From Neocallimastix sp. 'constans' (lineage: Eukaryota), in NCBI GenBank assembly GCA_050613775.1, contig JBODTK010000016.1:868001-932000 (forward strand): a stretch of DNA of 64,000 nucleotides, read 5' to 3'. Shown here in pieces: positions 6,684 through 33,906 of the stretch (positions within the stretch are counted from its first letter, which is position 1; each line of letters opens with the position of its first letter). The notes under the pieces were generated by a model. It did not search any database. It saw only the letters and a list, made by a program, of their open reading frames with translations, and was not told where the DNA came from. The position numbers and the translations under genes were made by a program.

Positions 6684-6692
6684 GGGAGAGAG
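6682..6692 (+). other. Polypurine tract of element A
   Basis: AAGGGAGAGAG overlapping the ORF stop and directly before the inferred LTR; repeated at 13663-13673. Confidence 0.75.
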
Positions 6693-7335: not shown

Positions 7336-7813
7336 TAAAAAACACCCAAGATTTAGACGCCGTGCCTTGATATATCTACCCTTTTGTTTGGTTTGAAGCT
7401 TTCTTTTGGAATTAGTGTCTACTGCCTTTTTGTTTTCTTTTTGGACTTTATTTTTTGAATCTCTCGGATTTTCTGTTTCCTTTGTTTTTGGTTTCTGTTT
7501 GGCTACTTATCTTATTGGCTTCAGGTTTCCACTTTTGGTTAGATTCTTTCTGTTTGCCTTGGATTTCTTATTTTTGGTCTTGGTTTCTGTTTCCATTGGT
7601 TTCAGATTTCTTAGTTTTGGACTTGGTTTTTGTTTCCATTGGTTTCGGGTTTCTGATTCTTGGTTTCTACTTTTGGACAAAATCTCTTCTTCTCTTAGTC
7701 TCTGATATCTTCTTTGGGTTCAGCCTTGCTTCTTGAATCTACTTTTTTTTTTTAAAAAATAAAATTCTCGGTTTTTGGTATTAATAGCAAACTCACAATA
7801 ATACCAAAATCTA

Positions 7814-9163: not shown

Positions 9164-9335
9164 AAAATAATAATTTATAATTCTTTATCATTACAATTTT
9201 CATTCGGGAGCACTAATAAAAAAAAAAAAAAAAAAAAAAAAAATAATAATAATAATAGTGATAATATTAAATAAATCTTCCTATTGCAATTCTTAAACTA
9301 TTCTTAAACTTGTTTATAATTTAATAATTCTTTCA

Positions 9336-13664: not shown

Positions 13665-13673
13665 GGGAGAGAG

Positions 13674-14316
13674 TTATAACAGAATCAATAATTACAATTA
13701 TTTTATTATTTTAATATTTAGTATTATTTTTCAATAAAGTTTTAAAACAAATAATTAAATTTAAAAAATATTATTTCTGGTATAGTTGTTAGTAACTAAT
13801 ACCATGAATCAAACTACTTAGGGTTCGATTCACATTTATTATTATTTTATAGTTTTATTCTAAAAAATATCTAGAAGATTCTTTATAGTTCAAGAAATTA
13901 CTAGAATTTCTTGATAATTCTTGTGTTTAATTAATTAAAATTTATTCTATTAAATTCTTAATTCTATTGTTTTCTATTTTTTCTAAATTTTTCGATTTTT
14001 AAGAACTTTTTAGAAACTTTTATTTTTATTTTTTAATAACTTTAACTTTTGAAAAAAATATAAATATGAGTAAAATTCTTATTAACAAATATTCTTTTCT
14101 TTGTGTTTTTTATTTTAATTTTGTTTAGTTAATAAAACTTAATTTTTAATAAAACTTTTTTTAATATTAATACTATATCAACCCTTGCGGCTTATAGTAT
14201 TATAATAAATATAATTAATAAAATAATTATAATAAAAGAAAAAAAATAAATAAAAAATAAAATAATTTTTGTTTTTTTTTGAGTGTTATTATATTTATTA
14301 TAATATTTTGTTATAA
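13674..14316 (+). repeat. Element A LTR (third, 643 bp)
   Basis: Same sequence and termini as 6693-7335. Confidence 0.65.
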
Positions 14317-15124
14317 TAAAAAACACCCAAGATTTAGACGCCGTGCCTTGATATATCTACCCTTTTGTTTGGTTTGAAGCTTTCTTTTGGAATTAGTGTC
14401 TACTGCCTTTTTGTTTTCTTTTTGGACTTTATTTTTTGAATCTCTCGGATTTTCTGTTTCCTTTGTTTTTGGTTTCTGTTTGGCTACTTATCTTATTGGC
14501 TTCAGGTTTCCACTTTTGGTTAGATTCTTTCTGTTTGCCTTGGATTTCTTATTTTTGGTCTTGGTTTCTGTTTCCATTGGTTTCAGATTTCTTAGTTTTG
14601 GACTTGGTTTTTGTTTCCATTGGTTTCGGGTTTCTGATTCTTGGTTTCTACTTTTGGACAAAATCTCTTCTTCTCTTAGTCTCTGATATCTTCTTTGGGT
14701 TCAGCCTTGCTTCTTGAATCTACTTTTTTTTTTTAAAAAATAAAATTCTCGGTTTTTGGTATTAATAGCAAACTCACAATAATACCAAAATCTATCTAGG
14801 CGAAAAAAAAAAAAATTTTGATATAAAAAAAAAAAAAAAAAAAAAAAATTCTTTAAGAAGTTCTACAGTTCTTGAGACTTTTTAAAGAATATTACAGGTA
14901 AATATAATATTTAAATATACTAGGAGCGATTAGAGCTCATAAACAGAGTTTCGGCGGTTAGTAACTGTAAAGATATTATTAATATCTTTATAAATTTTAA
15001 TTAAATTTAATCATAAATTTAAGTAAAATTGAAATAAATCTATTAAAAATCACGTGTATAAAATTATTGCAAATAATTTTAAACAAAACTTCGACTTCTT
15101 CCCAATCACATTAATAAATTAAAA

Positions 15125-15822
15125 ATTATCTAAAAACTGTCAAAGTTTTAAGATAATTTGGTCTTAACGATTAGGTCAAGATGCCAAATTATAGTAATTA
15201 ATTAATAACTTAATTTTGCTCTTATTTAAAACATATTGTTATTAGTAAATTTTATAATTAAAATTTTTATTTAAAATATAAATTTTATTTAATCTTAATA
15301 ATATTTTATTACATTATTATTTTATATAATTATTACTATAATTTAAATTACAATAATCCTACAAAGGATTAATCAAAAGAATTTAAACATGTATTTATAT
15401 AAAATAATTAATTATTAAAATATTAATTATTAATATGAATATGTAAATAATATTAATATAAGTTTGATATTGATAATATAAAGTTAGATAATAATATAAA
15501 TATTTAATATAAATAAAATATAAGAATCAAATATTGCTAAATATTATAATTTATAATTAAAATATAATATGTAGAAATTAATTTAATATGACAATCACGT
15601 GTTTACATTATTTAATATATATTAAATTCAATATGTTAATAATATTTAGTAATTAGTTGGCCTAGACTAATTCCTAAATATTTTAATAAAGTTAATTTAA
15701 TAATAATTATTATATTATTATTATTTATTAATATTGAAATTCAAATAACTGAATTATCGAAATTGAAATTGAATTGAAATTCAGTTATTATCTTAACAAA
15801 AACTTTGACAAGTAAAGAATTA
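15125..15822. mobile_element. Possible foldback/MITE-like element at the truncation point of element A copy 3
   Basis: TGTCAAAGTTTTAAGATAA (15138-15156) is an imperfect inverted repeat of TTATCTTAACAAAAACTTTGACA (15788-15810). Internal hairpins at about 15155-15191 and 15744-15789. No TSD found. Confidence 0.4.
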
Positions 15823-15853
15823 TTAATAATAAAATAAAGGTTATTAATTCATT

Positions 15854-16641
15854 TGGTATGGTTCATATAATTTTAGGAATATAATAATAATTAACACAAA
15901 TAATAAAATTACAATAAAAAAAATTAATTTGTTTTAAAATCAATATTTATTTATTTAAATTTATAAAAGAAAAATAATAATATAATTATTTATTTAATAA
16001 AAAGAAAGTTATTGATTATATTTTATTTCACTAAAATTACATGTATTTATATTTTTTTATCAAATTAAAATTTGTAAAGCCTAACTATTTTTTTAATAAA
16101 CTAATTACTAATTATTTTTATAAATAAAACATTTAAATTGAAATTGAATTATTATTTTAGTTAATAATATTATTGTTATAAATAGTAGTTATATATTATT
16201 GAATTATTAATTATTTAATAATAGTTTAATACTAATATATATAAAATAAAAATAAAGAGATTATACAGAATATTTTATTGTGGTTTAGTTAAATTTAGTA
16301 ATTAAAAATAAATTTAAATTGATAACGAAAATTTTAATAACTAATTAAATAGATTTGATTATTTTCAATATAACATAATACAAAAGAAATATAATATTAA
16401 TATATTAAGTGGGCAAGGACAATATTCTTGGCTAAAGATTTTTAATACATTATAATGGAATCGGATCGATAATTCAAAAAGGAATTATAAGTTAATTAGT
16501 GATTTATTAACTTTAGATTTCTATTTAGTAATATTTGAAGAATATTGGAAAGTTCCAATTATATAAAATAGAATAATCTATAAGGTTAGAATAATTTATA
16601 TTATTCTAGCACAATTAGTATTATTTGTTCATTCTGTATTA
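15854..16641 (-). mobile_element. Putative degenerate solo LTR
   Basis: Flanked by CATT (15850-15853 and 16642-16645). Termini TGGTATGG...CTGTATTA resemble element B LTR termini TGATACGT...CTGCATCA, mostly by transitions. Confidence 0.45.
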
Positions 16642-16645
16642 CATT

Positions 16646-17248
16646 TGGTACAGGACTTTTGAAATGGATGGATGTATAATAATATATTGGTAAATAGATA
16701 GTGGACGTATAAAAATTACGAAAAACTTATACAATATTTATTTATTTATTTATTGATTATTTATTAATTTATTTATTTAAAAATTTATTTAACTATATAT
16801 TATTCATCCATTTATTTATTTGTTCATTTATTTATTTATTCCTCCATTACATAAAAAAAAAGAAAAGAGAGAGATTTAAAATAATATTATTACAAAATAT
16901 TTTATAAATTTTGGTAATACATTGATTAGTTAAAAATAATTTTGTGTAACAATAAAATAATAATAAAATTTTAGATATGAATATTAATAATAAAAATAAT
17001 AAAAAAATTTATAATATAAAATAAAATTTATCAAATGTATAATAAAAATATAATAAGAATATAATAAAATATTTATTTTATAGCAAAATATTAATAATTA
17101 ATAATATATATATTTATATAATAATAAAGGAAATATTGATAAAGTTAATAAAGATAATAATTAATTAATAAAATAGATTTAAAACATATTTATATGGAGA
17201 AATATTAAAATTATTATAATTTAAGGTATTTGGGTAAATACCGTATCA
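16646..17248 (+). mobile_element. Putative solo LTR (603 bp)
   Basis: TG...CA termini (TGGTACAG...CCGTATCA) resemble element B sense termini (TGATGCAG...ACGTATCA); flanked by CATT on both sides. Confidence 0.65.
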
Positions 17249-17252
17249 CATT

Positions 17253-17805
17253 TGATACGTTATTTCTATAAGTATCAATGTTTTTGTGGTTAGCAAGATT
17301 GTATTAAATAAAAATATATTCTAATATAAAAATATATAATTACAATACACGTTAATATTAAAACAAAATATAAAAAAATTATAGTTTTGTCGTTTTATTT
17401 ATTTATTTAAATTATTTATGTCGTAATACAAATTTTATAATAAAATGTTATTAAAGATCTTATTAATTATTTATTTCTAACTAACTTATTACTATTAAAA
17501 TTTTTGATAAATAAATATATTCCCCAAATATATTTATTTTAACCAATTTTATCTCTATTTTTTTCCAAATAAAAAAACCTCCTTTTTTTTTTTTTTTTTA
17601 AAGAATTATAATAATTTTTCTTTTATATTTCTAATTTCTAATTTACTATAAATTAAATCCTATTGGCTATTAACTAATTAAATAAATTTAATAATTTTTA
17701 TATTACTATTTATTATTATAATATACATATATAATTTAACTAATTATTTATTATATTTAATTTTATTTCTTGATAATATTCTCTTTTTATTTAAATACTG
17801 CATCA
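17253..17805 (-). repeat. Element B 3' LTR
   Basis: Direct repeat of 25155-25707; preceded on the minus strand by the G-rich tract GCGGGGGCGTCT. Confidence 0.95.
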
Positions 17806-17893
17806 AGACGCCCCCGCTTAGCCTAGACTTCGTCCCTTGAAGTCCTAAAAAAATATATATATATATATATATATAAATCCATTTAAATTTGCT

Positions 17894-17953
<60 letters not shown>

Positions 17954-18063
17954 AATTAATCTTTGTTCAAAAAAAAATTTTATATGAATTATTATTATTT
18001 TATTGGTCAATTATTAATTCATTAAACATGTGAAGTTTATCAATGTAAATGTCTTATTCATGG

Positions 18064-18126
<63 letters not shown>

Positions 18127-19020
18127 TTAGGTATGTATATTATGTTATTATTGTTATTATTATTATTATAATATATTTAAATTGATGATTACATATTTAA
18201 ATTGATAATTACATTCAATAATTATTTTTATTAATTGATTTAATTTCATTGTTACCATTTGTTATATAAATATATATATATTTGGAAATATCGTATAATT
18301 TAGAATTTATAACGTCAAATTTCTTTGTCAAATCTCATTATGTTCACATTATTTTCTTTTCGCCATGTACTTTTTTAATTATCATTAATATGTATTATAA
18401 TCATTATTATCCAAATAAAATTATAATTAAAAAAAATAAAATAATCTTTTGAATCAATGTCTTAATTTAATGTTGAACCTATGGTTTTAAAATATATACT
18501 ATTATTATTTTTGTATATTATTATATAATTATATTTATCTATAACATTCATATTATTTTATATTATAATACTATCTATTTTGTTATTTTAGTTAATAATA
18601 TATATTATTATACTATCTTTTTGTTATTTCATCTATATTTTATTATTTTACTCAATATATAATATTTATATTATTATACTATCTATTTGTTATATTATCA
18701 ATATTTTATTATTTTACTCAATATATAATATTTATATTATTATACTATCTATTACGTTATATTGTCTATATTATAGTTAATTATACTATCTATACTATCT
18801 ATGTTTATATATTTTATTATTATATCTAATATAATCAGTTCTTATATATAATTATTATTATTATTATTATTATTATTTTTTTTTTTTTTTTTTTTTTTTT
18901 GAGATAAAATTTATCAAATGTTAAGAAATGAATAAAATAAATTTCAAAATTATAAGTTTTAAATTCAGATTTTGAAATTTCAATTTTGAGGTTTTGAAGT
19001 TTCAATATAATTTAATTATT

Positions 19021-19054
<34 letters not shown>

Positions 19055-19090
19055 CTGTTAATTTTTTTTTTTGTATATATATATGTATCC

Positions 19091-22000
19091 TTATTCTTCT
19101 AAATTCAATTCTGTGAAATATGGAATAATATTTTTTAAATGAATGTTTCTATCAGCAACTTCTCCAGTTACTGGATCGCAAACTGTTACTGTATTGAACT
19201 CTTGTTTTACGATCTTTAGTGGGCCAGTGGAAAACGGATCCAGCTTCTTTCTGTTGAACAATTTGACCAAAACAAGATCACCTGGCTTATACTTTGCTCT
19301 CATTCTTTTTATTTGTTTTCTACGATCTTCCCACAACTTGTTTGCTGTTTCAATGTTCTTTATTGCTTCACGGATCCAACGGTCATGGTTAATAAATTTC
19401 CTCAGCCAAAATTCTTCTTCGTCTTCCCAGTCATTTTTGGATTCGACATTAACAGTGAGTTCGAATGGTTGTAAGTCTCTCCGATCATACAACAATTCAA
19501 AGCTGCTGTGCTTCGTAACTTCATTCTTGCACGTTCTTAAAGCCCAAAGAGCACTATAAAGTGTTTCGTCCCACTGCGAATCCTCTTCTCCGAGTAACCT
19601 GAGATACTTACCTATTTCCCTATTTCTGTTTTCTACTTCTCCATTAGACGAGGGGTGATAGGTTGCTACATAATTTACATAAATGTCGTTAAGGTCCAAA
19701 AATGCTTTTGTCTTATCGGAAGTAAACTGTGGACCATTGTCAGTAACTAAAATTTCAGGAACACCATGTCGTGCAAATATTTTCTTGAGAAAATTTATTA
19801 CATCTTGAGATTCGGCAGATTGTAAGGGTTCTGCTTCCACCCATTTGGTAGGATAATCTACTAATACAATTATATATCTATTACCTTTATTTGTTATAGG
19901 TAACGGTCCTATTAGATCCAACCCAACTCTTGAGAAAGGATATTCAGGTACAGTTGCGATATTTTCGGTATATTTATTTAATTTTTGTGGTCGACAAGTT
20001 TGACACTTGTGACAACATTTTATTAGTATTTGTATATCTTTTTTCATATTTCCCCAGTAGTAATCCCTCTTCAGTCTGCTATAAGTTTTATAAGCTCCTT
20101 CATGGCCTAGACCATGGGCTTCTTCGATTAATTTTTGCTTCTCTTCTTTGTTGTGAACTATTCTTCTCAGTTGTTCTCCTTGTTTAAGATATTCCACACC
20201 ATCAATATTTATAATTCTCTTATTTATAAATTCATTCATAAATTTATTTATACTATCATTGCTATTATTGGATAAAACATCATTGTTTACTAATGCATTT
20301 AATATTTCTTTATTTTCATGTATTTCTTTTGTAGGTAACCTAGATAAAGCGTCAGCAATAACGTTCTTCTTCCCCTCTTGAAATTGGACTTGAACATTTA
20401 ATATTGATAGTTCAGTAACCCATTTAAGGTGGCGATTATTTGAAGGCTCTCTATTAGCAAATATACTAACCAAGGGTTTATGGTCTGTATAAACGATAGT
20501 GGTAAAAGGGCTTCCACTAAAATAGGGTTTAAATTTTTTAACACAATGAAATATTGCTTTGCCTTCTAAATCAGTAACACTATAATTAGATTCAGCAGCG
20601 GAAAGAGTTCTACTTTCAAAATATATGGGGATTTCAATTGAATTTTCATTTGTTTGGAGAAGTACTCCACCAAGTCCATCTCTGGAAGCATCTGTTCGGA
20701 TAATAAATGGTTTAGAATAATCAGGAGGAGTTAAAATAGGGGCAACCGTTAGTGACATTTTTAATTTTTCAAAGGCTATGTTGCACTTTTCGGACCATTC
20801 ATACGGTACATCTTTCTTTAAGAGGTTAAACAGAGGATTTGCAATCTGAGCAAAATTTTTAATAAATTTCCGATAATAACCAACAGCTCCCAAAAATGAT
20901 TTAAGTTGAGTGATATTTTTAGGGGGTAGCCAGTTAATTATAACTTTAATCTTATCAGGAATCGGGGCAATACCTTTTGTGGATAATACATGACCAAGAA
21001 GGACTACTTCTTCTTTGAAAAAAGAACATTTTTCTAAGTTTATTTTCAAACCATTGTCTGCTAGGATTTGGAATACTTTAGTAAGATGAGTAATGTGTGA
21101 TTCAATTGAGTCAGAAAATATTACTAAATCGTCAATGTAAACAAATAAGCATACTCCAATCAAGTCAAAAAAAATCCGGTTCATTTCACGTTGAAATGTA
21201 GCCGGTGCATTACATAGCCCAAACGGCATCACACAAAATTTATAGTTTCCAAACATCGTTGTGAATGTTGTTTTATCTTTATCATCAGGATTCATTGGAA
21301 CCTGATGATAACCAGAAAAAAGATCAATAGTAGAGAGTATTTTAGCGTTCTTTCCAATAAACATTAATATGTCATCAATTAAGGGCAAAGCATAGGAATC
21401 CTTAATAGTTATATTGTTTAAAGCCCTAAAGTCGACACACATTCTCCAGTCGCCGTTTTTCTTTGGAACTAGTACTACTGGAAATGCCCATGAAGAGTAG
21501 GATGGCTCTATTAGTTTGTTTTCTATTAGCTTAATCAAAATTTCCTTTAGAGCTTTTGTTTGCGCTTTGGATAAACGGTAAGCTTTTAACTTTATGGGTG
21601 AAGATTTTGGAATTAATTCAATCCTGTGAGGTAATAATTTTGACCTTCCTAAATCATCTGTTTTAATTGCAACTACATTTTTAAATTTAAAAAATAATTT
21701 ACTAATTTTATTTTTAAATTTATTAGGAACAGAAGATATTATTTCGTTAATTAAATGTTCTTTCGTGTTAGGTAATTCATTAGTGTTCGTAATTTCTTTA
21801 TCATTGGTAACTGTAATTGTTAATAAAAAAGGTTCAGATTTTGTATTTTGATGTTTTTCTATATCCTCATTATCCTTGTAAGTATTATTAAGATTGATAT
21901 CATAAAATAGATCTGCTAGTTTAATGTAATTATTATTTTCATCAATATAATATAAAGTATCATCTACTAAGTTAATATCAAATCTATTATTCTTTAGAGA

Positions 22001-23587
22001 ATCAACACCAATTAAGATATCGAAAATATCATCCTTTTCTATTATTCTGAAATATTCATTAAAAGTTTTACTACCAATAGAAATCTGTAAGTCATAGATA
22101 TCACTCTCTGTTGAAGAATTAGAGTACGCTTGAAATATTGTTTCAGAAATTCTACCAATAGAAGGTTTGTTGATTTTTAATTTATTTAAAGCAGAACGTG
22201 TGATAAAGTTGACACTAGCACACGTATCTAAAAATATTTCACAGTCATTATTTTCTACTTTACCGCAAACTTTAATTATTTTATGTTTTGTGATAACCGT
22301 CATCACATTTGTTATTGTTTGTTTAGGCGCTAATTTTAAAGCTTTTAAAAATTCTGTACGGAATTTTGGAAAAAGATCTAAAAGGTAAACTAATTTTGTT
22401 ATTACATCAGTTGATGCAATTTCTTTTATTAAATCTTGAATATAATAATCACCAAATTTTTCCATAAGTTTGATGTGTTTTTCAGGTTTCTTAAAAGAAG
22501 TTTCACTTTGCTCAATGTCGGTATTTATTTTCTTAGCTTTATTTTTTATATCTTTGATTTTTTCTTCCCTATTTTTACCTTTAACATTTCGAATATTTTT
22601 CTCTGTTATAAAGGAAGGATCAAGATATTCTAGTTTTTCTGTTTTACGATTTTCACTATTAGAGACCATATCCGGGTTTTCCTTAATTATATTATTAAAA
22701 TTCTTAGATCTACCAGGTAAAATATTATTATAATTTTTAGAGTTATAATTTTCTTTATCAGCATCATTATCTTCATCATCTTCAGATTCTTCTATCATAA
22801 TTACATCTTCATTAGGTTCTATATCTTCTCGTTCAACCCTTTGGGTATTGCTTGTATTGTTATGAGTATTATCATCATTATTGGTGACAGTATTTTCTTT
22901 AAAATAGTCGTAAGTATTATTTTCCTTATTTTCATTAAAATCATTATTACTATTATAATTATCTATAGTATTATTATTTTTATTATCATTATTCGCATTA
23001 TCGTTATAATTGTCTATATTATGATTAATTTTATTATTATTATTCTTATTATTGTTTTCATATTCATTATTCTTATTATTCTTATGATTATTAATATTAT
23101 TATAATTATTATTAGCATTTGTATTACTATAATCGATATTATTTTTATTATTAATATTATTATTATAATTATTATTAATACTATTATAAGTACTAATTTT
23201 ATTATCACTAGTATTATTATTAATATTATTATGACTCATAGCTGCCGTTTGTATTGGTTTTGGATTGTCCTTTAAATTAAATCTCACTTCCTTTCTATTG
23301 TATGGCTTTTCATTATGTTTGTTTAATTTATTTCTTGAATTTCGAGTAGCGGCTGCTATAATTTCAATTGGTCTATTTAATGTATTTTGTGTAGTGTTAC
23401 TATTATTGTTTATATTAAGGTCATTACATTTTTGTTTTTCTTTAATATTATTATTAATTATAGGTAATATTGTTTGATCGTCTACCATTGTCATTATATT
23501 ATTATTATTATTATTATTATTATATGAGTCGTTATTTTTGAACATTATTTTATTATTATTATTATATGAGTCATTATTTTTGAACAT
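19091..23587 (-). CDS. Pol of element B (Asn-rich spacer, protease, RT, RNase H, integrase); frame open back to the slippery site at about 23683
   Basis: FLDTCAS; MPFG; YIDD; IRTDAS; HGLGH..CHKC; GLDL, TDNG, GEVE. No chromodomain. Confidence 0.97.
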   Translation of the reverse strand: MFKNNDSYNNNNKIMFKNNDSYNNNNNNNNIMTMVDDQTILPIINNNIKEKQKCNDLNINNNSNTTQNTLNRPIEIIAAATRNSRNKLNKHNEKPYNRKEVRFNLKDNPKPIQTAAMSHNNINNNTSDNKISTYNSINNNYNNNINNKNNIDYSNTNANNNYNNINNHKNNKNNEYENNNKNNNNKINHNIDNYNDNANNDNKNNNTIDNYNSNNDFNENKENNTYDYFKENTVTNNDDNTHNNTSNTQRVEREDIEPNEDVIMIEESEDDEDNDADKENYNSKNYNNILPGRSKNFNNIIKENPDMVSNSENRKTEKLEYLDPSFITEKNIRNVKGKNREEKIKDIKNKAKKINTDIEQSETSFKKPEKHIKLMEKFGDYYIQDLIKEIASTDVITKLVYLLDLFPKFRTEFLKALKLAPKQTITNVMTVITKHKIIKVCGKVENNDCEIFLDTCASVNFITRSALNKLKINKPSIGRISETIFQAYSNSSTESDIYDLQISIGSKTFNEYFRIIEKDDIFDILIGVDSLKNNRFDINLVDDTLYYIDENNNYIKLADLFYDINLNNTYKDNEDIEKHQNTKSEPFLLTITVTNDKEITNTNELPNTKEHLINEIISSVPNKFKNKISKLFFKFKNVVAIKTDDLGRSKLLPHRIELIPKSSPIKLKAYRLSKAQTKALKEILIKLIENKLIEPSYSSWAFPVVLVPKKNGDWRMCVDFRALNNITIKDSYALPLIDDILMFIGKNAKILSTIDLFSGYHQVPMNPDDKDKTTFTTMFGNYKFCVMPFGLCNAPATFQREMNRIFFDLIGVCLFVYIDDLVIFSDSIESHITHLTKVFQILADNGLKINLEKCSFFKEEVVLLGHVLSTKGIAPIPDKIKVIINWLPPKNITQLKSFLGAVGYYRKFIKNFAQIANPLFNLLKKDVPYEWSEKCNIAFEKLKMSLTVAPILTPPDYSKPFIIRTDASRDGLGGVLLQTNENSIEIPIYFESRTLSAAESNYSVTDLEGKAIFHCVKKFKPYFSGSPFTTIVYTDHKPLVSIFANREPSNNRHLKWVTELSILNVQVQFQEGKKNVIADALSRLPTKEIHENKEILNALVNNDVLSNNSNDSINKFMNEFINKRIINIDGVEYLKQGEQLRRIVHNKEEKQKLIEEAHGLGHEGAYKTYSRLKRDYYWGNMKKDIQILIKCCHKCQTCRPQKLNKYTENIATVPEYPFSRVGLDLIGPLPITNKGNRYIIVLVDYPTKWVEAEPLQSAESQDVINFLKKIFARHGVPEILVTDNGPQFTSDKTKAFLDLNDIYVNYVATYHPSSNGEVENRNREIGKYLRLLGEEDSQWDETLYSALWALRTCKNEVTKHSSFELLYDRRDLQPFELTVNVESKNDWEDEEEFWLRKFINHDRWIREAIKNIETANKLWEDRRKQIKRMRAKYKPGDLVLVKLFNRKKLDPFSTGPLKIVKQEFNTVTVCDPVTGEVADRNIHLKNIIPYFTELNLEE

Positions 23588-23648
23588 TGTTTTATTATTA
23601 TTATTATATGAGTCATTATTTTTGAATATTATTTTATTGGTTTGGTTA

Positions 23649-23683
23649 ATGGAAGTTGTCCTTCTCCCATCTATTGGTTTAAA
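23649..23683 (-). promoter_or_regulatory. -1 ribosomal frameshift signal (U UUA AAC plus hairpin)
   Basis: Heptamer at 23683-23677 is in the gag frame; AUGGGAG/CUUCCAU stem lies downstream; pol is in the -1 frame and open across the junction. Confidence 0.85.
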
Positions 23684-24987
23684 TGTTTATTGAGCAATCC
23701 TTTTTCTTCCAATTCAGCCAATTGCTTAAATGTATAAGGACATTCTGAAGCTCTATGTCCATTCATTGTGCAACGGTAACAATTTACATGGTTGTTATTA
23801 TTGTTGTTAATTGAGTTTTTATTAGTTACTAATGTATTACTGACATTATTATTTTCTATCCCATTGTTGTGATTATTTCCATTTTGATAATTAAAGGATT
23901 GAATCATATTATTTGTATTAAATTTATTATTGTTAAACATTTGGTTGTCATGTTCTTTATCATTATTTGTTATATTAATATTGTTGTTCAAATTGTTTAA
24001 ATAATGATTCATCTTATTGTCTCTTATTTCATTGGATGGCTGATTATTATTCATATTGTTCATATTATATTTGTTATTATTATTCATATATTGATTAATA
24101 TTATTACTGTGCCAAAATTTATTATAATTAAATCTACTATTATAACGATTTGTAAAATTTCCATTGTTCATTTTATTAATATCATTTTTATTATTCAAGT
24201 AATAATTTAGATTATTATATGGATTACTCATGTGATATACATAATTTGAATTTCTGAAATTATTATTATTGTTCCATAATCTAGATTTAGAATTCCAATT
24301 ATTTCTTTCCTGGAATATATTATTATTATGGTTCATAGGTAATTGATTTAACTGTAAGTTTTCGTAGAATGGATGTCGCATTAGTAAGCTATTATCCGGC
24401 TGATTCTGAGTAAACATAATATGATTCCTCATATTATTAATTTCATTTCTTTGATTTATATTTGCTATTTCTTTTTCAGTCTCCTCAGCTACTTCTGCAA
24501 TTTTACACGCCTCATTTATTGTATCACATTCTGCAACCATAACTCTTGAGCATGGAAATACACGGGAGCTAATAGCATTCGTGTAGTCCTTTACAGATAT
24601 AAGTCTTCTATATTCTAAACTGAGTTTATTATATAATTTTTTATATCTGTAATTAAACTTTTTAATTGATTCTTCTTGATTTATTTGTATTGTTTTGAGA
24701 ACTGCACATTTATCATTTTCTGTAATGTGCAAATGTTCTTCAATTGTATTTTGAATTTCTTTAAATGTGGGATATCTCATTTCATCCCCGTGTCTGACTA
24801 CCAATGATTGTAACGCTCCTTGAATATCTTCTTCCACAGCTTCCTTTACCCAAATAAAAATTCGCCTTGGTTCCATTATATCATAAAGCTCCATTATCTT
24901 AACAAAGTCGGTCATCCAGCTGTCTACATCTTTTCCATAATCAGCCAGATGTGGTAGCTTCCTTTGCAGTTTAGTAGCGTCAAACAT
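23671..24987 (-). CDS. Gag of element B
   Basis: Capsid-like N-terminal half, Asn-rich region, CCHC knuckle CYRCTMNGHRASEC. Confidence 0.95.
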   Translation of the reverse strand: MFDATKLQRKLPHLADYGKDVDSWMTDFVKIMELYDIMEPRRIFIWVKEAVEEDIQGALQSLVVRHGDEMRYPTFKEIQNTIEEHLHITENDKCAVLKTIQINQEESIKKFNYRYKKLYNKLSLEYRRLISVKDYTNAISSRVFPCSRVMVAECDTINEACKIAEVAEETEKEIANINQRNEINNMRNHIMFTQNQPDNSLLMRHPFYENLQLNQLPMNHNNNIFQERNNWNSKSRLWNNNNNFRNSNYVYHMSNPYNNLNYYLNNKNDINKMNNGNFTNRYNSRFNYNKFWHSNNINQYMNNNNKYNMNNMNNNQPSNEIRDNKMNHYLNNLNNNINITNNDKEHDNQMFNNNKFNTNNMIQSFNYQNGNNHNNGIENNNVSNTLVTNKNSINNNNNNHVNCYRCTMNGHRASECPYTFKQLAELEEKGLLNKHLNQ

Positions 24988-25132
24988 TGTAAAAAAAAAA
25001 ATAATTACTTGATAAAAAAAAAAAGAAAAATAAATGAAAGATTATATAAAAAAAAGTATTCTATTATGATAATTATATTGTAATTATAATTTTCTTATTA
25101 TTTTCATATTAATTTATTTGATCTTGCTTTCC

Positions 25133-25149
25133 CCCCACGTTGGGCGCCA
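25133..25149 (-). other. Primer binding site for tRNA-Lys(CUU)
   Basis: TGGCGCCCAACGTGGGG, 5 nt inside the 5' LTR, matches the well-known Lys1,2 PBS. Confidence 0.9.
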
Positions 25150-25154
25150 AATTT

Positions 25155-25707
25155 TGATACGTTATTTCTATAAGTATCAATGTTTTTGTGGTTAGCAAGA
25201 TTGTATTAAATAAAAATATATTCTAATATAAAAATATATAATTACAATACACGTTAATATTAAAACAAAATATAAAAAAATTATAGTTTTGTCGTTTTAT
25301 TTATTTATTTAAATTATTTATGTCGTAATACAAATTTTATAATAAAATGTTATTAAAGATCTTATTAATTATTTATTTCTAACTAACTTATTACTATTAA
25401 AATTTTTGATAAATAAATATATTCCCCAAATATATTTATTTTAACCAATTTTATCTCTATTTTTTTCCAAATAAAAAAACCTCCTTTTTTTTTTTTTTTT
25501 TAAAGAATTATAATAATTTTTCTTTTATATTTCTAATTTCTAATTTACTATAAATTAAATCCTATTGGCTATTAACTAATTAAATAAATTTAATAATTTT
25601 TATATTACTATTTATTATTATAATATACATATATAATTTAACTAATTATTTATTATATTTAATTTTATTTCTTGATAATATTCTCTTTTTATTTAAATAC
25701 TGCATCA
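25155..25707 (-). repeat. Element B 5' LTR
   Basis: Direct repeat of 17253-17805. Confidence 0.95.
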
Positions 25708-25711
25708 CATT

Positions 25712-26198
25712 TGATAAGAATGTACTAAATAATGCATTCTTAATTAAATCTACGATTTATTTCTAATACATTATGTGTACATTATTATTTTTGTACTTTA
25801 ATAAATTTTTAAATTCAAAGATTAAAAATTAGATCAAAAATTATATTAAACTTTATAATTTTTATATTAAATCTTATATTAATAGTAATATTTTTATATA
25901 TTTAAAACTTATATTAACAATATTAATAATAAATCTTATTTTTTTATTTTTATATTAATAATGAAAATTTGTATTAATAATATTTTTATATATTGATAAT
26001 TAAAAATTTATATATTATATTTTAACTTTTATTATAAAATTTTATATCGAAATGTTTTATTTTATATTGAAAAATATTTTATTTTATTAAAAACCTTTAT
26101 ATTAGAATAGTATTTTTATTTTTATTTGAATATTTTAACAGATTGTAATAAAAATTTTAGCCAATTAAATAAATTCTTATTAGTAATATTTTAGATAG

Positions 26199-26264
<66 letters not shown>

Positions 26265-26573
26265 TATTAATATTATAAATGTATTTTATTTATATTGTTA
26301 TAATTAAATTTTATATAATTGATTATAAAAATCAATTTAAATTTAATAGTTTTTATATATAAAAAGAAAAATAATAATAAAATGTAATTTAGTGGCAAGA
26401 ACAACTTTTATGCCTTGAAAAAAAAGTATAAATAGTTGTAAATTTTGCTACTAATTTTTAAATATCATCAAATAAAATAAAATAAAATAAAATAAAATAA
26501 AATAAATTAATAAATAAAAAATAAAATTTGTGTTTCTTACTTTATTTTTATTTAATTCTCTAAAACCTTAACA
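25712..26573 (+). repeat. Element C 5' LTR
   Basis: Direct repeat of 32895-33758. Confidence 0.95.
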
Positions 26574-26579
26574 TTTATA

Positions 26580-26596
26580 TGGTGGAGATATCGGGG
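26580..26596 (+). other. Primer binding site, probably tRNA-Ala
   Basis: TGGTGGAGATATCGGGG follows the LTR; TGGTGGAG is complementary to the typical tRNA-Ala 3' end (CUCCACCA). Confidence 0.75.
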
Positions 26597-26691
26597 AATT
26601 AAATAGAAATAATAGTAAATAACATAGATTTTTTTTTTTAATTTTTTTTTATTTTATATTGATAAACAAGTAAGTCGTTAATCCTTTGATT

Positions 26692-27117
26692 AACCTATGG
26701 CGCTTGTTTGATATATATATAAAAAAAAATTTTTTTTAAATAAGTAAAATTAAGATTCAAAAAAAAAAACAAATTTTGTAAAATTATAACAAGGAGCGGA
26801 TAGAGCTCATACACAGTGTATTCTCAGATAGCAACAAATTAACTCTATTCATAGTAGGTTATTGAATAGTAGTTAATTTGGAGATTAATTGGAAAGTAGA
26901 CGAAGGTATTTGGTTACCGACCCGGTAATAATAGTTCAGCCTTCAACGTTTCAACACACGAAGGTGCGGGTACTTTCCAAGCACTGGCGAATAAGGAGCT
27001 TACGTCACCGAAGGCGTAAGATTGTTTTTTTTTATATATATTTTTTTTTACTTTTCTTTGTGCTAGTTATAAGGCACTTTATTATATAAAGTATCAGACT
27101 TTGGCTAACTTCGCCAT
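26692..27117 (+). ncRNA. Candidate large structured RNA in the element C 5' leader (compact form, about 425 nt)
   Basis: Same motif order and covarying helices as 834-2182. Confidence 0.75.
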
Positions 27118-27600
27118 TTAAATTTTTTTTATTTTTTTTTATTACTGATACTTTATTTGTTTAATAATTCCTGTAAAAGAATCTTAATTTACTTGAAAAT
27201 ATTGTGTTTTTAGTTAATTTTTATTAGTTAATAAAAATATTATTGAATACTTTTAAAATTTTTTTTTTATTCCGTACATAGATTATCGGATTAAGTTTAT
27301 CCTACATAGTAATTGGGCTAGTAGGCTCTGAACTGCTATATTTTATATTGAATATAGTAATCGTGGCACACGCGTGGCATGACACCATTAGGTAAGCTGC
27401 ACGTCAGACAGTGTGTACTATCAGATTGTACGACAATAAAGATTATTTTTTTGTATTTAATAATTATAATTAATTAATAATTTTATTAGCTATAACAATA
27501 CAATATTTATCGTTTAAAAAGAAAAATTTTTGAAAGGTGAAAATAATAAATAAAACTTTGCTTCTAAATTTATTACTACAAATATACTAAATTACAAAAT

Positions 27601-27792
27601 TCAAGTGGTCGATAAAGGTTTCGAGCTTGAAAAATATTCTATTGAGTTGTCGATAAAGATTTCGAACTTAAAATTATTCTATTGAGTTGTCGATAAAGAT
27701 TTCGAACTTAAAAATTATTCTTAATAAAGTAGTCGAAAAGAACCTCGTGCTTTATAATTTCTACTAAGTTGTCGATAAGGATTTCGAGCTTA
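27601..27792 (+). repeat. Five tandem hairpin-forming repeats of about 40 bp upstream of gag
   Basis: Consensus resembles RAGTtGTCGATAAAGATTTCGARCTT with A/T-rich linkers. Confidence 0.85.
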
Positions 27793-27966
27793 TATCTACT
27801 AAAGAAAGCAAATAAAATTATTATTTTCAAAAGTTACTAAAATATATTGTTTTAAAAATTGATTCGATATTAAATTACCTATTAAATTATATTTTTAAAG
27901 TTGTATTTCCAAATTTATTCTTATTTAATCACCTCATTAATATACAACAAGAAATATTTAAACAAA

Positions 27967-28878
27967 ATGTCCAAGGAAACAACTTTGAGCTTTAAAGAAT
28001 TGAAAAAAGAATTAAGAGATATTGTGAAACTTAGCAAGGACAATTTAGATATTAAGTCCTGGGCTACTGAATTAAAACTTTGGATCAAGATACAAGGTAT
28101 TACAGATCCAGAAACAATATTTAATGCTTGTTTACTTACCAGCTCTGGTGAAGTACAACGCGTTATTGAAGATTTGGGAGAAGATAGTGATGATGAAAGT
28201 GATGATTCATCAGATGAAGAAGAAGATGATGATGAAGAAGAAAATGTTGATGATGATATTAAATTTCCTTCCCTTGAAAAAATTATTTCAAGTCTTGAAA
28301 ATTTTTACGGTATTAAAGAAGACCAAAATTTACTTCTTAAAGAACTTCGTGCAATGCGAATTAAAAGAAACGAAAAGATTAAAGACTTTAATGTAAGATA
28401 TAGAACTTTGTACACTAAACTTGATAAAAAGAGAAGAAAGCGCATTGGTGTACTAGATTATATTGATTCTATTCAAAATAATTATGAAGCCTGGAAGAAA
28501 TTATCCCTTAAAGATGATATAAGTATGGATAAAGCTTTCAAAATTGCCGAGAAAGTAGATAGACTTTCTGTAAGGAACAATAATATTAATACCTATAATG
28601 TTAATAATTCCCAACATAATCAAAATAATCAAAACAGTACTACTTCAAGACTTTATCCTAAAAGAAGAAACGAAACTTTCCAAACAAATCAAACAAATAA
28701 TAAACCGAAACCTCAAGATATTATAGAAGAATCAACCCAGAAAATGAGAAATTTATCCGTTAAAACTTGCTTCTTCTGTAAGGAAGAAGGTCATTACTCA
28801 TACTATTGCCCTCAATTAAATAAGATTATGGAAAAAAATAAAAAAGAAATATATTCCAAAAAGTCTTTAAACTTCTAA
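27967..28878 (+). CDS. Gag of element C (ORF track starts at TTG 27901; first ATG is 27967)
   Basis: Capsid-like region with an acidic insert; CCHC knuckle CFFCKEEGHYSYYC. Confidence 0.93.
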   Translation: MSKETTLSFKELKKELRDIVKLSKDNLDIKSWATELKLWIKIQGITDPETIFNACLLTSSGEVQRVIEDLGEDSDDESDDSSDEEEDDDEEENVDDDIKFPSLEKIISSLENFYGIKEDQNLLLKELRAMRIKRNEKIKDFNVRYRTLYTKLDKKRRKRIGVLDYIDSIQNNYEAWKKLSLKDDISMDKAFKIAEKVDRLSVRNNNINTYNVNNSQHNQNNQNSTTSRLYPKRRNETFQTNQTNNKPKPQDIIEESTQKMRNLSVKTCFFCKEEGHYSYYCPQLNKIMEKNKKEIYSKKSLNF

Positions 28879-28918
28879 ATGGGAGCAGAAGCACTCCCAA
28901 TGACAAAACAATAGCTTC
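28866..28918 (+). promoter_or_regulatory. -1 frameshift signal (U UUA AAC plus stem-loop or pseudoknot)
   Basis: Heptamer 28866-28872; UGGGAG/CUCCCA stem 28880-28899; loop GAAGC can pair with GCUUC at 28914-28918; -1 frame open to the pol ATG. Confidence 0.85.
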
Positions 28919-29060
28919 ATTAAATAATTTACAAAATAATACTTTTACTAAGAATACTCCAATTGATAATAATTCCTTTAACGAAGAATCTGAAGAATCT
29001 GATTTTAGTGACACAACTGAAAGTGAGGATGATATCATTATAAATGCTGTAAAAAGAAAA

Positions 29061-32000
29061 ATGAATGATAATAACAGCGAAAAAGAAGAAAATAATTCCA
29101 AGAAAGTACATAAAAGTTTAAAAGATAATCCACGTCCTTTTGCAACTCCTGCTTTAAGAAAGAAGAAAGAAAATGAGCTGCATAATAAACCAAATAAAGT
29201 TTATAAAAATCAAATACTTCCTTCAATTTTAACTCAACCAAATATTAACAAAGAAAAACAAAAAGAAAAGGAATTAAGAAATATGACAAGAGTAAGAGAA
29301 AGTAAAGAAGAAAACAACAATTATTCATCAAAAGGAAAGGAAAAAGTTGAATCTGAAGATATACTTGTAATCGATAATGAAATAGAAGATCTAGAAATGA
29401 ATAAAGATAATCAACAAAATAAAACTAATACTTTGGAAAAATTAATTTCAACAAAAACTAAGGAAACTAATAATGGAAATACTCAATTAGTAAAAAGGAA
29501 TATCAAAATGATGAATAATAAAGAACCTTACAATATTATGGATGATTTAAATAATCTTAAATCCAGTATTACGATAGGTCAACTCTTGAATGCATGTCCT
29601 AAAATTCGTTCACAATTAACTCAAGGTTTAAAGTTAGAAAAGTCTAAAATAATTGGAACTGTAGACAATGTAATAGCACGAACTTTATTAGTAAATAACT
29701 ATGACCATAGCTACATAAGTAAAAGTAATGAAGTAGCCGAAGAAGACTTAGCAATGGTTGATGCAAGTGTTGACGGAGTACTAGGAAAACTTTTAATTGA
29801 TTCTTGTAGTAACCTAAGCATCGTTACTAAGCAGTATTTTGATAAATTACCTGGTGAATATGAAACAGTTGGAAAAAGTCGTGGAAGAATCCAACTAGCA
29901 ACACAAGATGAAGAATACTCGGAAGGAATTATTGTTCGATTACCAGTAAAAATTAATAATTATGAATTTAATGCGGACTTTAGAATTATTGAGAAAGAAG
30001 ACTCATTTTATGATATGTTAATAAACTTTAAAACTCAAATCGATCATTGTTTATTTATTCATCCAACCTTAAACAGTCTATGTAAACTTTTGTCAGAAAG
30101 TGAATACGAAGAAATAGCTAAAATAAATAATCAATATTATGATGAAGAAAGTATAATCTGCACTATTAGAAAAGTTGAAGAAACGAATAATGAAAAGGAA
30201 ATTATAAAGGAATTAACTCCAATGGAATTTATTGAGAGTGATGAATTTTTAAGTACCTTAAATAAAGATTATAAAGAACAAATTATTAAAATTCTCAAAG
30301 AAATGATTGACATAGTTGCCACTTCAACAGAAGAACTAACTCCTTCTAAACTTTCACCACATAAGATCCGTTTGAAAGCAAATGCAAAGCCAGTAAAATT
30401 AAGAAGTTATAGGTTAACTAAATTAAAATCAGATATCTTAAAAGAAGAACTTACAAAGCTTATTAAGAAAGGATTGATAGAACCATCCTGTTCAGAATGG
30501 TCATCTCCAGTAGTACTCATTCTAAAACACAATGGAAAGTGGCGCTTGTGCATTGACTACCGAAAAGTCAATGATATGACAGAAAAAGATTCTTATTCAG
30601 TTCCATATATAGATGAAATTTTTGATAGTCTCGGAGGAGCTAAAATATTTACAACTCTTGATTTATTTTCTGGTTTTCACCAAATCTTAATGGATGAAGA
30701 AAGCGTTGAAGTAACCACTTTCACTACTAAGTTTGGAAATTATCAATTTAAGGTTATGCCTTTTGGACTTACTGGAGCTCCCTCAACCTTCCAAAGAGAA
30801 ATGAATAAAATTTTATTCCCTTTTATTGGTGAATTTGTTTATGTATTTATTGATGATGTTTTGATCTATTCAAAAAGTATCGAAGAACATTTAATTCATA
30901 TTAAACAAGTATTAGAAGTATTTAAAGAAAACAAGTTAAAAATTAATATTGAAAAGTGCCATTTTCTTCAAACTGAAGTTGATGTATTAGGTCACAAACT
31001 TACTACTAAAGGATTAAGTCCCATGGAAAGTAAGATAACAGCTATTAAGAAGTGGGAAGCCCCTTCATCACTTCATGAATTAAGATCATTTTTAGGAGCA
31101 GTGGGATATTATCGTGATTTTATTCCTAAATATGCTCAAATTACCTCACCTTTATGTAAATTATTGAAAAAGAATACCAAATATGAATGGAATAAAGAAC
31201 AACAAGAAAGCTTTGAACTCCTAAAAGAAAAATTAATCAATGCACCTATTCTAAAATTTCCGTCATTTGACAAACCTTTTATCATTAGAACTGATGCTTC
31301 GTATAATGGAATTGGTGGAGTTCTTTTACAAAAAGAAGAAGAAACCGGTAAGGAGCATCCAATACACTTTATAAGTAGAAGTTTAAAGAAAGCTGAAAAG
31401 AATTATGGTATTACCGATTTAGAAGGAACCGCTTTGTTTTACTGTATGACTAAATTTAAATCTTATATTGAAGGAAATCCATTACCTACAACTATTTACA
31501 CAGATCATAAACCATTAGTTGGTTTATTTAAGAATAAAGAACCTTTGAATGCAAGGCAAACAAGATGGTGTCTAACCGCTAGTATGCTCGGAATTAATAT
31601 AAAATATGAATCAGGCAAAAAGAATGTGTTAGCTGATGCTCTTTCAAGAATGAAAAGTAAGGAAGAGAGAAAGATATTATTAACAAAAATTACTAATGGA
31701 AATAATGAAGAATTATTATCTAAAGTTATAAAGGAATTTATTAATGAAAAGTTTACTGTTATTGATGGTGAAGATTATTTTATCGACAATGGAAATTATA
31801 GAAAATTAATAACGGACGAAAATGAAAGGTTTAAATTAATTTTAGAAGCTCATAATATTGGCCACGAAGGATATTACAAAACATATCAAAGACTTAAGAA
31901 AAACTTTTATTGGAATCATATGATTAAAGATATCAAAAGAATTGTTAGTAATTGTGAAAAATGCCAGTTAAATCGTCCTCAACCATATCCAGAACCAACC

Positions 32001-32876
32001 GAAATCCATCCAACTAAAGTGGAGGGTCCCTTTGTGCATTTAGGATTAGATATTATAGGACCGTTACCAAAAACAAGAAATAATAATCAATATATTATAG
32101 TAACTGTTGATTACTTTACCAAATGGGTTGAAGCCGAACCCACTGAAAACATAACTTCCTCTGATATAATTAAATTTTTAATAAACGTTTTTGCAAGACA
32201 TGGTGTGCCTCAAGTTATTACTACAGATAATGGAGTCCAATTCACTTCTGATATGACTAAAATCTTTCTTGATCTTTATGATGTTTATGTAAAATTCATA
32301 GCTACCTATCACCCTGAATCCAATGGTCTCACTGAAAACCGAAATAAAGAAATTGGAAAATTACTTCGTTTATTAGGAAGGAAAAATCAAGATTGGGATG
32401 AAGTTTTACCTTCTGCTTTATGGGCACTTCGAACTACCAAAAACACAGCTACCGGACATTCTAGTTTTGAATTAGTATATGGAAGAGAAGACCAACAGCC
32501 TTATGATATAGCCATAAGAACAATTGAAAATGCAGGTAAATCGTATGATGAAATTTTAATGGAAAAATTTGTTCGTCATTATCAATGGACTAGAGAAGCA
32601 TGCGAAAATGTGAAGAATGCTAACAAGTATTGGGCAACAAGACGAGAAGAACAAATAAGTATGAAAAAAGGAAAAGAATTAAAAGCTGGTGATCTTGTTC
32701 TTGTTAGAAACTTTAGCCGCACTAAGCTAGAACCATATTACAATGGACCATTTAAAATTTTAAAAATTCAATTCAACACGGCAACCTTAATCGATCAGAA
32801 AACTGGGAAACAACTCGATAGGAATGTTCATTTTAAAAATTTAGTAAAGTTTAACTCCGCTTACAGAGAAGCTTGA
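29061..32876 (+). CDS. Pol of element C (protease, RT, RNase H, integrase); frame open from about 28866
   Basis: LIDSCS; MPFG; FIDD; IRTDAS; HNIGH..CEKC; GLDI, TDNG, GLTE; GPF. Confidence 0.97.
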   Translation: MNDNNSEKEENNSKKVHKSLKDNPRPFATPALRKKKENELHNKPNKVYKNQILPSILTQPNINKEKQKEKELRNMTRVRESKEENNNYSSKGKEKVESEDILVIDNEIEDLEMNKDNQQNKTNTLEKLISTKTKETNNGNTQLVKRNIKMMNNKEPYNIMDDLNNLKSSITIGQLLNACPKIRSQLTQGLKLEKSKIIGTVDNVIARTLLVNNYDHSYISKSNEVAEEDLAMVDASVDGVLGKLLIDSCSNLSIVTKQYFDKLPGEYETVGKSRGRIQLATQDEEYSEGIIVRLPVKINNYEFNADFRIIEKEDSFYDMLINFKTQIDHCLFIHPTLNSLCKLLSESEYEEIAKINNQYYDEESIICTIRKVEETNNEKEIIKELTPMEFIESDEFLSTLNKDYKEQIIKILKEMIDIVATSTEELTPSKLSPHKIRLKANAKPVKLRSYRLTKLKSDILKEELTKLIKKGLIEPSCSEWSSPVVLILKHNGKWRLCIDYRKVNDMTEKDSYSVPYIDEIFDSLGGAKIFTTLDLFSGFHQILMDEESVEVTTFTTKFGNYQFKVMPFGLTGAPSTFQREMNKILFPFIGEFVYVFIDDVLIYSKSIEEHLIHIKQVLEVFKENKLKINIEKCHFLQTEVDVLGHKLTTKGLSPMESKITAIKKWEAPSSLHELRSFLGAVGYYRDFIPKYAQITSPLCKLLKKNTKYEWNKEQQESFELLKEKLINAPILKFPSFDKPFIIRTDASYNGIGGVLLQKEEETGKEHPIHFISRSLKKAEKNYGITDLEGTALFYCMTKFKSYIEGNPLPTTIYTDHKPLVGLFKNKEPLNARQTRWCLTASMLGINIKYESGKKNVLADALSRMKSKEERKILLTKITNGNNEELLSKVIKEFINEKFTVIDGEDYFIDNGNYRKLITDENERFKLILEAHNIGHEGYYKTYQRLKKNFYWNHMIKDIKRIVSNCEKCQLNRPQPYPEPTEIHPTKVEGPFVHLGLDIIGPLPKTRNNNQYIIVTVDYFTKWVEAEPTENITSSDIIKFLINVFARHGVPQVITTDNGVQFTSDMTKIFLDLYDVYVKFIATYHPESNGLTENRNKEIGKLLRLLGRKNQDWDEVLPSALWALRTTKNTATGHSSFELVYGREDQQPYDIAIRTIENAGKSYDEILMEKFVRHYQWTREACENVKNANKYWATRREEQISMKKGKELKAGDLVLVRNFSRTKLEPYYNGPFKILKIQFNTATLIDQKTGKQLDRNVHFKNLVKFNSAYREA

Positions 32877-32894
32877 GTCTTCGTCGGGGCATCT

Positions 32895-33381
32895 TGATAA
32901 GAATGTACTAAATAATGCATTCTTAATTAAATCTACGATTTATTTCTAATACATTATGTGTACATTATTATTTTTGTACTTTAATAAATTTTTAAATTCA
33001 AAGATTAAAAATTAGATCAAAAATTATATTAAACTTTATAATTTTTATATTAAATCTTATATTAATAGTAATATTTTTATATATTTAAAACTTATATTAA
33101 CAATATTAATAATAAATCTTATTTTTTTATTTTTATATTAATAATGAAAATTTGTATTAATAATATTTTTATATATTGATAATTAAAAATTTATATATTA
33201 TATTTTAACTTTTATTATAAAATTTTATATCGAAATGTTTTATTTTATATTGAAAAATATTTTATTTTATTAAAAACCTTTATATTAGAATAGTATTTTT
33301 ATTTTTATTTGAATATTTTAACAGATTGTAATAAAAATTTTAGCCAATTAAATAAATTCTTATTAGTAATATTTTAGATAG

Positions 33382-33449
<68 letters not shown>

Positions 33450-33758
33450 TATTAATATTATAAATGTATTTTATTTATATTGTTATAATTAAATTTTATA
33501 TAATTGATTATAAAAATCAATTTAAATTTAATAGTTTTTATATATAAAAAGAAAAATAATAATAAAATGTAATTTAGTGGCAAGAACAACTTTTATGCCT
33601 TGAAAAAAAAGTATAAATAGTTGTAAATTTTGCTACTAATTTTTAAATATCATCAAATAAAATAAAATAAAATAAAATAAAATAAAATAAATTAATAAAT
33701 AAAAAATAAAATTTGTGTTTCTTACTTTATTTTTATTTAATTCTCTAAAACCTTAACA
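32895..33758 (+). repeat. Element C 3' LTR
   Basis: Preceded by CGGGGCATCT; repeat of the 5' LTR. Confidence 0.95.
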
Positions 33759-33773
33759 CATTCTTTACCAGTT

Positions 33774-33845
33774 GCCCGTTTGGCTCAGTGGTAGAGCGTC
33801 GCTCTCGTAAAGCGAAGATCAGTGGTTCGATCCCGCTAATGGGCA
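33774..33845 (+). tRNA. tRNA-Thr(CGT)
   Basis: Acceptor stem GCCCGTT/AATGGGC; D stem GCTC/GAGC; anticodon stem TCGCT/AGCGA with loop CT-CGT-AA; T arm GGTTCGATCC; T5 run at 33861-33865. Confidence 0.97.
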
Positions 33846-33906
33846 TTAGAAATTAATGAATTTTTAAATATTTTTTAATAAATACAAATGTTGATGAAAT
33901 AAATAA

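Follow-up and report, generated by a model that had tools for sequence, protein, structure and literature searches.

Long terminal repeat (LTR) retrotransposons established as integrating at tRNA gene start sites include Ty3, Tj1, Tyl6, Tca8 and DGLT-A (PMC5911963, PMC4600332). Ty3 of S. cerevisiae uses a narrow window at the RNA polymerase III (Pol III) start, some 15 bp ahead of the mature tRNA (PMC5006619), and integrates through the C-terminal domain (CTD) and a vestigial chromodomain of its integrase on TFIIIB (bioRxiv 2021.07.27.453949; PMC6673722). The dictyostelid DGLT-A elements insert 13–33 bp (mean 15) upstream of tRNA genes in either orientation and carry no chromodomain. They form several families per genome with repeated insertion at one tRNA gene (PMC5006619, PMC5911963), and stacks of targeted elements at a single tRNA gene have already been noted there (PMC5006619, Table 1 footnote c). 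Further fungal Ty3/gypsy elements near tRNA starts, namely Tj1 of S. japonicus, Tyl6, Tyl3 and Ylt1 of Yarrowia, and beta and Tca8 of Candida (PMC5911963, Table 1), are all ascomycete elements. Here we analyse a stretch of 64,000 nucleotides from the gut fungus Neocallimastix sp. 'constans' (contig JBODTK010000016.1 of assembly GCA_050613775.1, positions 868,001 to 932,000; hereafter the window), in which four LTR-bearing units are stacked at one 4-bp site just upstream of a tRNA-Thr gene. We consider it likely that the Ty3/gypsy clade to which two intact units belong is targeted, as a preference, to positions near tRNA gene starts.

The window has a G+C content of 21% and a sole tRNA gene, tRNA-Thr(CGT), with a clean cloverleaf and an Rfam score of 67 bits (ARAGORN sets its bounds at 33773–33846). 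The tetranucleotide CATT starts at all five boundaries of the stack (Table 1), and its proximal copy occupies positions −15 to −12 of the mature tRNA, leaving 11 bp between them. These coordinates, given in a preliminary description of the sequence, were reproduced. Three of the boundaries (17249, 25708 and 33759) are exact, being fixed by the LTR pairs of the two intact elements. CATT is frequent in the window (364 occurrences), so the signal is its position and not its presence. From distal to proximal, the units are S1 (minus strand), S2 (probably minus), B (minus) and C (plus). They belong to different families and have no internal sequence in common. The U3 end probably faces the tRNA in three of the four (S1, S2 and B), while C has its U5 end towards it, and the junction between B and S2 forms a 7-bp inverted repeat centred on CATT. 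The junction of the C LTR, CATT and tRNA was found unchanged in a 71-base contig from one (X4) of four public sequencing runs aligned to 33712–33868. A contig of another run (X8) reads C LTR end, CATT, TG and unrelated sequence; this may be the present locus with a still younger insertion on the proximal side, or a chance match. No empty-allele joint at the tRNA junction was listed from the four runs, a result that carries no weight, and the lack of coverage at 33766–33771 in run X1 is equally uninformative.

Elements B (17253–25707, minus strand) and C (25712–33758, plus strand) are Ty3/gypsy LTR retrotransposons (Metaviridae). Both carry paired TG...CA LTRs, a primer-binding site (PBS), a purine tract, a 4-bp target-site duplication (TSD) and intact gag and pol genes. 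Their pol encodes protease, reverse transcriptase, RNase H and integrase in that order (PR-RT-RH-IN; Pfam RVT_1, RT_RNaseH, Integrase_H2C2 and rve in the same order), with intact catalytic motifs (DTCA/DSCS, YIDD/FIDD, HHCC, D-D), and overlaps gag in the −1 frame with TTTAAAC inside the overlap. The two 553-bp LTRs of B are 100% identical, and those of C (862 and 864 bp) differ only in a poly(A) run of 59 versus 61. The PBS differs between the elements, that of B being presumably of tRNA-Lys type and that of C of tRNA-Ala type, and follows the LTR after a spacer of 5 nt in B and 6 nt in C. Neither element has a Pfam match to Ty3_capsid or to Chromo, while a third element of the window, the chromovirus A, matches Chromo.

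In a FastTree phylogeny of the RT-RH-IN region, which carried long-branch warnings and no named reference elements (Ty3, Tj1 and DGLT-A absent), 40 of the 63 rows, B and C among them, form one clade with Shimodaira–Hasegawa-like (SH-like) support of 100, apart from chromovirus A. The rows were obtained from 68 candidates by removing four for short coverage and one duplicate. Among the relatives of the C pol, the named ones belong to Orpinomyces sp. C1A and to a member of the Neocallimastix lanati cluster; the remaining close matches are metagenome proteins, and the score drops from E 1e-73 at match 101 to 1e-46 at match 102. The protein searches returned no DGLT-A sequence. The clade is likely specific to anaerobic gut fungi (Neocallimastigomycota), and integrase queries found no members in viral contigs. 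Seven clade contigs (L082–L088) sit inside GTDB prokaryote metagenome-assembled genomes (MAGs; Bacilli, Erysipelotrichaceae, Methanosphaera), likely through binning contamination. A search for the L083 LTR and the tRNA in five contaminated prokaryote MAGs gave the source contig and AT-rich noise only. Across 11 clade loci (window 25150–25154 and 26574–26579; L003–L029) the LTR-to-PBS spacer measures 2–9 nt, and the G-run lies about 5 nt from the 3′ LTR in clade loci. Given such spacers, cDNA ends would bear extensions longer than the usual 2 nt. A PBS follows the post-pol LTR in L005, L010, L014, L018, L019, L021 and L082 (and at the starts of L016 and L017), and L021 continues into a second gag-pol; tandem copies with a common LTR, LTR circles and collapsed assembly are possible alternatives.

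The clade integrase is short. After the GPF motif, 40–41 residues remain in B and C, with a median of 40 in 91 of 101 clade proteins, compared to 120 in chromovirus A. A structural model of the integrase (pLDDT 76.9) shows a long helix (residues 299–343) and an SH3-like beta-barrel, and the protein ends about 8 amino acids past this C-terminal barrel, which leaves no room for a 66-amino-acid vestigial chromodomain. As the modelled integrase has no chromodomain, the chromodomain contact used by Ty3 would be unavailable to it. A fold search, with the C-terminus outside the test, returned the generic integrase core only (prototype foamy virus (PFV), Z 22; Ty3 7Q5B, Z 17.7, root-mean-square deviation 9.9 over 261). 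As to chromovirus status, B and C thus lack the chromodomain, and the tree without named references places their clade apart from element A.

The elements share with Ty3 the position relative to the tRNA, the two overlapping gag and pol frames and the RT-RH-IN order, and Ty3 7Q5B is the best PDB sequence match of the C pol (361 bits). Over RT-RH, however, C is no closer to the Ty3 RT 4OL8 than is the window's chromovirus (283.7 versus 283.8 bits). Ty3 further differs by a 5-bp TSD where the five junctions here have a 4-bp CATT, by a vestigial chromodomain after the integrase CTD that binds Brf1 and is absent here (both bioRxiv 2021.07.27.453949), and by a +1 gag-pol frameshift (PMC6101501) instead of the −1 frame with its TTTAAAC overlap. 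DGLT-A, which we liken to B and C by description only, has one open reading frame (ORF) instead of two, binds the Tfc4 protein of TFIIIC through its RNase H and the N-terminal domain of its integrase (PMC6101501), and has an LTR-PBS spacer of 2 bp, compared to 5–6 nt and a fungal host here. Tj1 differs by a 5-bp TSD, self-priming and a single orientation (PMC4600332). By these defining features the clade is neither Ty3 nor DGLT-A and is probably a new tRNA start-site-targeting Ty3/gypsy clade. No report of such targeting in Neocallimastigomycota appeared in the literature searched (titles and abstract starts, with subscription papers and Repbase notes thinly covered), and the excerpt of PMC10085805 has nothing on stacks.

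We compared the distal segments S1 and S2 with clade LTRs. References were drawn from 44 fetched clade loci (42 distinct) in metagenomes and mis-binned MAG contigs, with LTR starts read after the purine tract and ends read before the PBS. On the minus strand, the right end of S1 matches the U3 start of L030 at 17 of 20 anchored bases, a level reached by a fraction of 5e-5 of 59,164 background positions. The first 200 nt of S1 score 57, 66 and 52 against the LTRs of L008, L009 and L030, compared to maxima of 40, 35 and 38 in 60 random windows each. The alignments span about 100 bases and BLAST also matches all three. We conclude from these matches that S1 is a solo LTR from C's subclade, lying on the minus strand, with its terminal TG now TA. 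S2 starts with TGGTAC and ends with GTATCA. The last 10 bases of its left end (minus strand) equal the U5 end of L015, and it matches clade U3 starts at 15 of 20 bases (background 0.0023), while its internal sequence has no significant match to any fetched clade LTR. The chance of finding CATT-TG...CA-CATT between two independently fixed neighbours is about 4e-8 (background 34400–64000). S2 is thus probably a solo LTR, clade-like at both ends, and its orientation is probably minus. Copies of B or C are ruled out for both segments, since neither aligns internally to the B or C LTRs, nor do they align to each other. Of the two distal solo LTRs proposed in the preliminary description, S1 is therefore upheld and S2 is probable, and its reading of four insertions at one 4-bp site, in both orientations, by different LTR families of one lineage is supported.

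If the position is targeted, clade elements should also end close to other tRNA genes. In the four sequencing runs, nine listed rows lie upstream of tRNA-Thr-like genes and represent six distinct flanks, besides which there are 12 more loose ends. Each flank has 30 letters, with the far TSD outside view, and was compared by eye with 21 reference LTR starts (that of L036 was mis-called, with no effect on the first two matches that follow). Among the flanks listed, one from run X4, taken as its reverse complement, agrees with the L023 U3 start in 18 of 19 bases, and its end lies 16 nt ahead of the tRNA. One from run X8 agrees with the L015 U3 start in 16 of 19 bases and stops 15 nt short of the tRNA, and a third closes with TGCATCA, the terminal 7-mer of B, at 14 nt. 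Against any of the 21 starts, none of 59,166 background positions reaches 18 matches and 12 reach 16. In the tree L023 and L015 sit in two further branches of the clade. The four bases that follow the outside LTR ends are AATA, AAAC and AAAA, none of them CATT, so it is position, not sequence, that is common. Targeting had earlier been called base-precise. This describes the stack, where the same four bases were used repeatedly with a gap of 15, whereas across loci the gaps of 15, 15, 16 and perhaps 14 indicate a precision of about ±1. The tRNA 5′ pattern had no match in viral contigs.

Several observations weigh against targeting. Three of the six distinct listed tRNA flanks have no clade-type end, two of them having CA alone at 14 and 17 nt. 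The 44 clade loci (42 distinct) contain no tRNA, mostly because the contigs stop inside the element, in LTRs or homopolymers. None of the three readable 3′ (U5-side) flanks, those of L013, L015 and L030 with the 4-mers CAAA, TGTA and ACAA, holds a tRNA either, and L030, of the C subclade, adjoins the reading frame of a copia RT (RVT_2, E 2.9e-8). Behind the C LTR end, four loose-end rows of 24–30 letters without a PBS show no clear tRNA start. Finally, the LTRs of both B and C are essentially identical, so these elements are too young to be ordered by age. Enrichment across loci stands at two of six listed tRNA-paralogue flanks matching clade LTR starts at 15–16 nt, against none of three readable element flanks. 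A bias for U3 towards the tRNA, which three of the four units here and the two strong outside flanks show, might explain the lack of tRNAs on the U5 side, except at L030. That locus suggests insertion of some clade members at other sites, and tRNA genes are probably not the only targets. The flank of L036, whose LTR end is uncertain, resembles a decayed transposase, and the exact C LTR end pattern had no match in metagenome contigs.

These observations raise the question of whether tRNA targeting is confined to some of the clade's families, the others, or the same ones part of the time, entering AT- or repeat-rich DNA, with stacks upstream of tRNA genes being what survives selection. L030, the three U5-side flanks and a read depth at the C LTR end that is very high compared to single loci agree with this explanation, as does P. 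pallidum, where DGLT-A.1–3 lost targeting and DGLT-A.4 retained it (PMC5006619). Nevertheless, selection alone gives neither four insertions at the same four bases nor ends 15–16 nt before other tRNA copies. We therefore regard this explanation as unlikely; it narrows the scope of positional targeting and does not replace it. Quite improbable, in our judgement, is a hot spot of sequence or structure, CATT itself or a near-palindromic LTR-CATT-LTR junction such as that between B and S2, at whose LTR ends new elements would land with the tRNA being incidental. Any such junction could give rise to tandem stacks of several families, but the other clade sites show other 4-mers on both the tRNA and the element side, single clade-type LTR ends lie 15–16 nt before other tRNA copies, and the 364 CATT of the window are unoccupied outside the stack. 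That an assembly artefact or recombination between homologous chromosomes merged separate insertions into an apparent stack is very improbable: assembly is difficult across identical LTRs and long homopolymers and no long read was seen across the stack, but the units have no shared internal sequence for recombination, each junction has exactly one CATT, the tRNA junction recurs without difference over 71 bases in run X4, and even joined alleles would each need an insertion at the same four bases.

Under positional targeting, the integrase would be held by the Pol III initiation complex, presumably through a TFIIIB or TFIIIC tether, and would cut at an almost constant distance from the tRNA gene, near a start site that may lie close to the A of CATT. 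Candidate tethers are the long helix with the SH3-like C-terminal domain, an N-terminal extension, or RNase H as in DGLT-A; judging from the model, the tether would be other than the vestigial chromodomain of Ty3. Because tRNA promoters are internal, the A and B boxes would keep the tRNA active after each insertion. Each insertion would re-create CATT at −15, so that the next element would enter between the previous one and the tRNA, and older elements would shrink to solo LTRs through recombination between their LTRs. The order of insertion that we infer follows from this mechanism rather than proving it. A chronological record with a decay gradient, as first proposed, would agree with the distal position of both solo LTRs and the mutated terminus of S1, but random order would place both solo LTRs distally with a chance of 1 in 6. 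The gradient itself comes down to that one mutated terminus and to the solo versus full-length state. More tentatively, and with rather more doubt than confidence, the clade may represent an independent origin of tRNA start-site targeting, with many active families, several primer tRNAs, a third molecular route (neither chromodomain-Brf1 nor RNase H-Tfc4) and ordered multi-family stacks that date insertions.

Such targeting has so far been described in ascomycete yeasts and dictyostelids; if it is true here, the clade would add a fungal phylum that diverged early and has large AT-rich genomes. DGLT-A of D. discoideum has no intact, recently active element (PMC6101501). The present clade offers intact, recently active elements with a short integrase that lacks the targeting domain of Ty3, and how often, and via which contacts, Pol III targeting evolved becomes directly testable. 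The clade might also lead to tools for safe-harbour integration in gut fungi. To our knowledge, these fungi have no easy genetics.

Table 1. Features of the tRNA-Thr locus and its stacked LTR units (window coordinates).
Feature	Position	Strand	Basis or remark
CATT, distal TSD copy	15850..15853	+	Sequence
S1 solo LTR, C subclade, 788 bp; U3 end towards tRNA; TG to TA	15854..16641	-	L030 anchored match; L008/L009/L030 alignments
CATT, TSD copy	16642..16645	+	Sequence
S2 probable solo LTR, 603 bp	16646..17248	- (probable)	L015 U5 end; clade U3 starts
CATT, TSD copy	17249..17252	+	Sequence
B 3′ LTR, 553 bp	17253..17805	-	Identical to 25155-25707
B G-rich polypurine tract-like stretch, 5 nt before LTR	17806..17820	-	Same layout in clade loci
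B pol, intact, 1531 aa between stops; order PR-RT-RH-IN; without chromodomain	19091..23686	-	
B gag, CCHC knuckle; -1 frame overlap with pol at TTTAAAC	23671..25041	-	
B PBS, after 5-nt spacer	25132..25149	-	
B 5′ LTR, 553 bp, U3 end towards tRNA	25155..25707	-	
CATT, TSD copy	25708..25711	+	Sequence
C 5′ LTR, 862 bp	25712..26573	+	
C PBS, after 6-nt spacer	26580..26597	+	
C gag, CCHC knuckle; -1 frame overlap with pol at TTTAAAC (28866)	27886..28878	+	
C pol, intact, 1344 aa between stops; order PR-RT-RH-IN; integrase stops 40 aa past GPF, without chromodomain	28842..32876	+	
C 3′ LTR, 864 bp, U5 end towards tRNA	32895..33758	+	Junction to tRNA also in run X4 contig
CATT, TSD copy, -15 to -12 of mature tRNA	33759..33762	+	Sequence; Rfam tRNA bounds
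Host spacer, 11 bp, part of presumed pre-tRNA leader	33763..33773	+	
tRNA-Thr(CGT) gene	33774..33845	+	Rfam; ARAGORN; cloverleaf

Outside the stack, the window starts with a head-to-tail array of chromovirus A (1–15127), with a unit of 6980–6981 bp, 99.98% identity and at least two full units. Element A has a single 1455-amino-acid ORF with Ty3_capsid and Chromo matches, and the array is cut off around 15127, about 720 bp from the stack. Two motifs in the 5′ leader are common to C (26782–26835 and 26979–27024), chromovirus A (952–1004 and 1929–1974) and L003 (506 and 699), with the pol of C and A about 32% identical. In the second motif, an invariant core of 14 nt precedes a hairpin of 8 bp, five pairs of which show compensatory changes across the three sequences. 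The leader motifs have no meaningful Rfam match; they possibly represent a conserved structured RNA with a role in packaging or translation, or a ribozyme. Elsewhere, 43088–44281 (minus strand) holds a 397-amino-acid ORF with a transglutaminase-like domain (PF01841, E 1.4e-5), and a long tandem array of an 18-bp unit, in which both strands carry open frames, lies at about 61750–62950.

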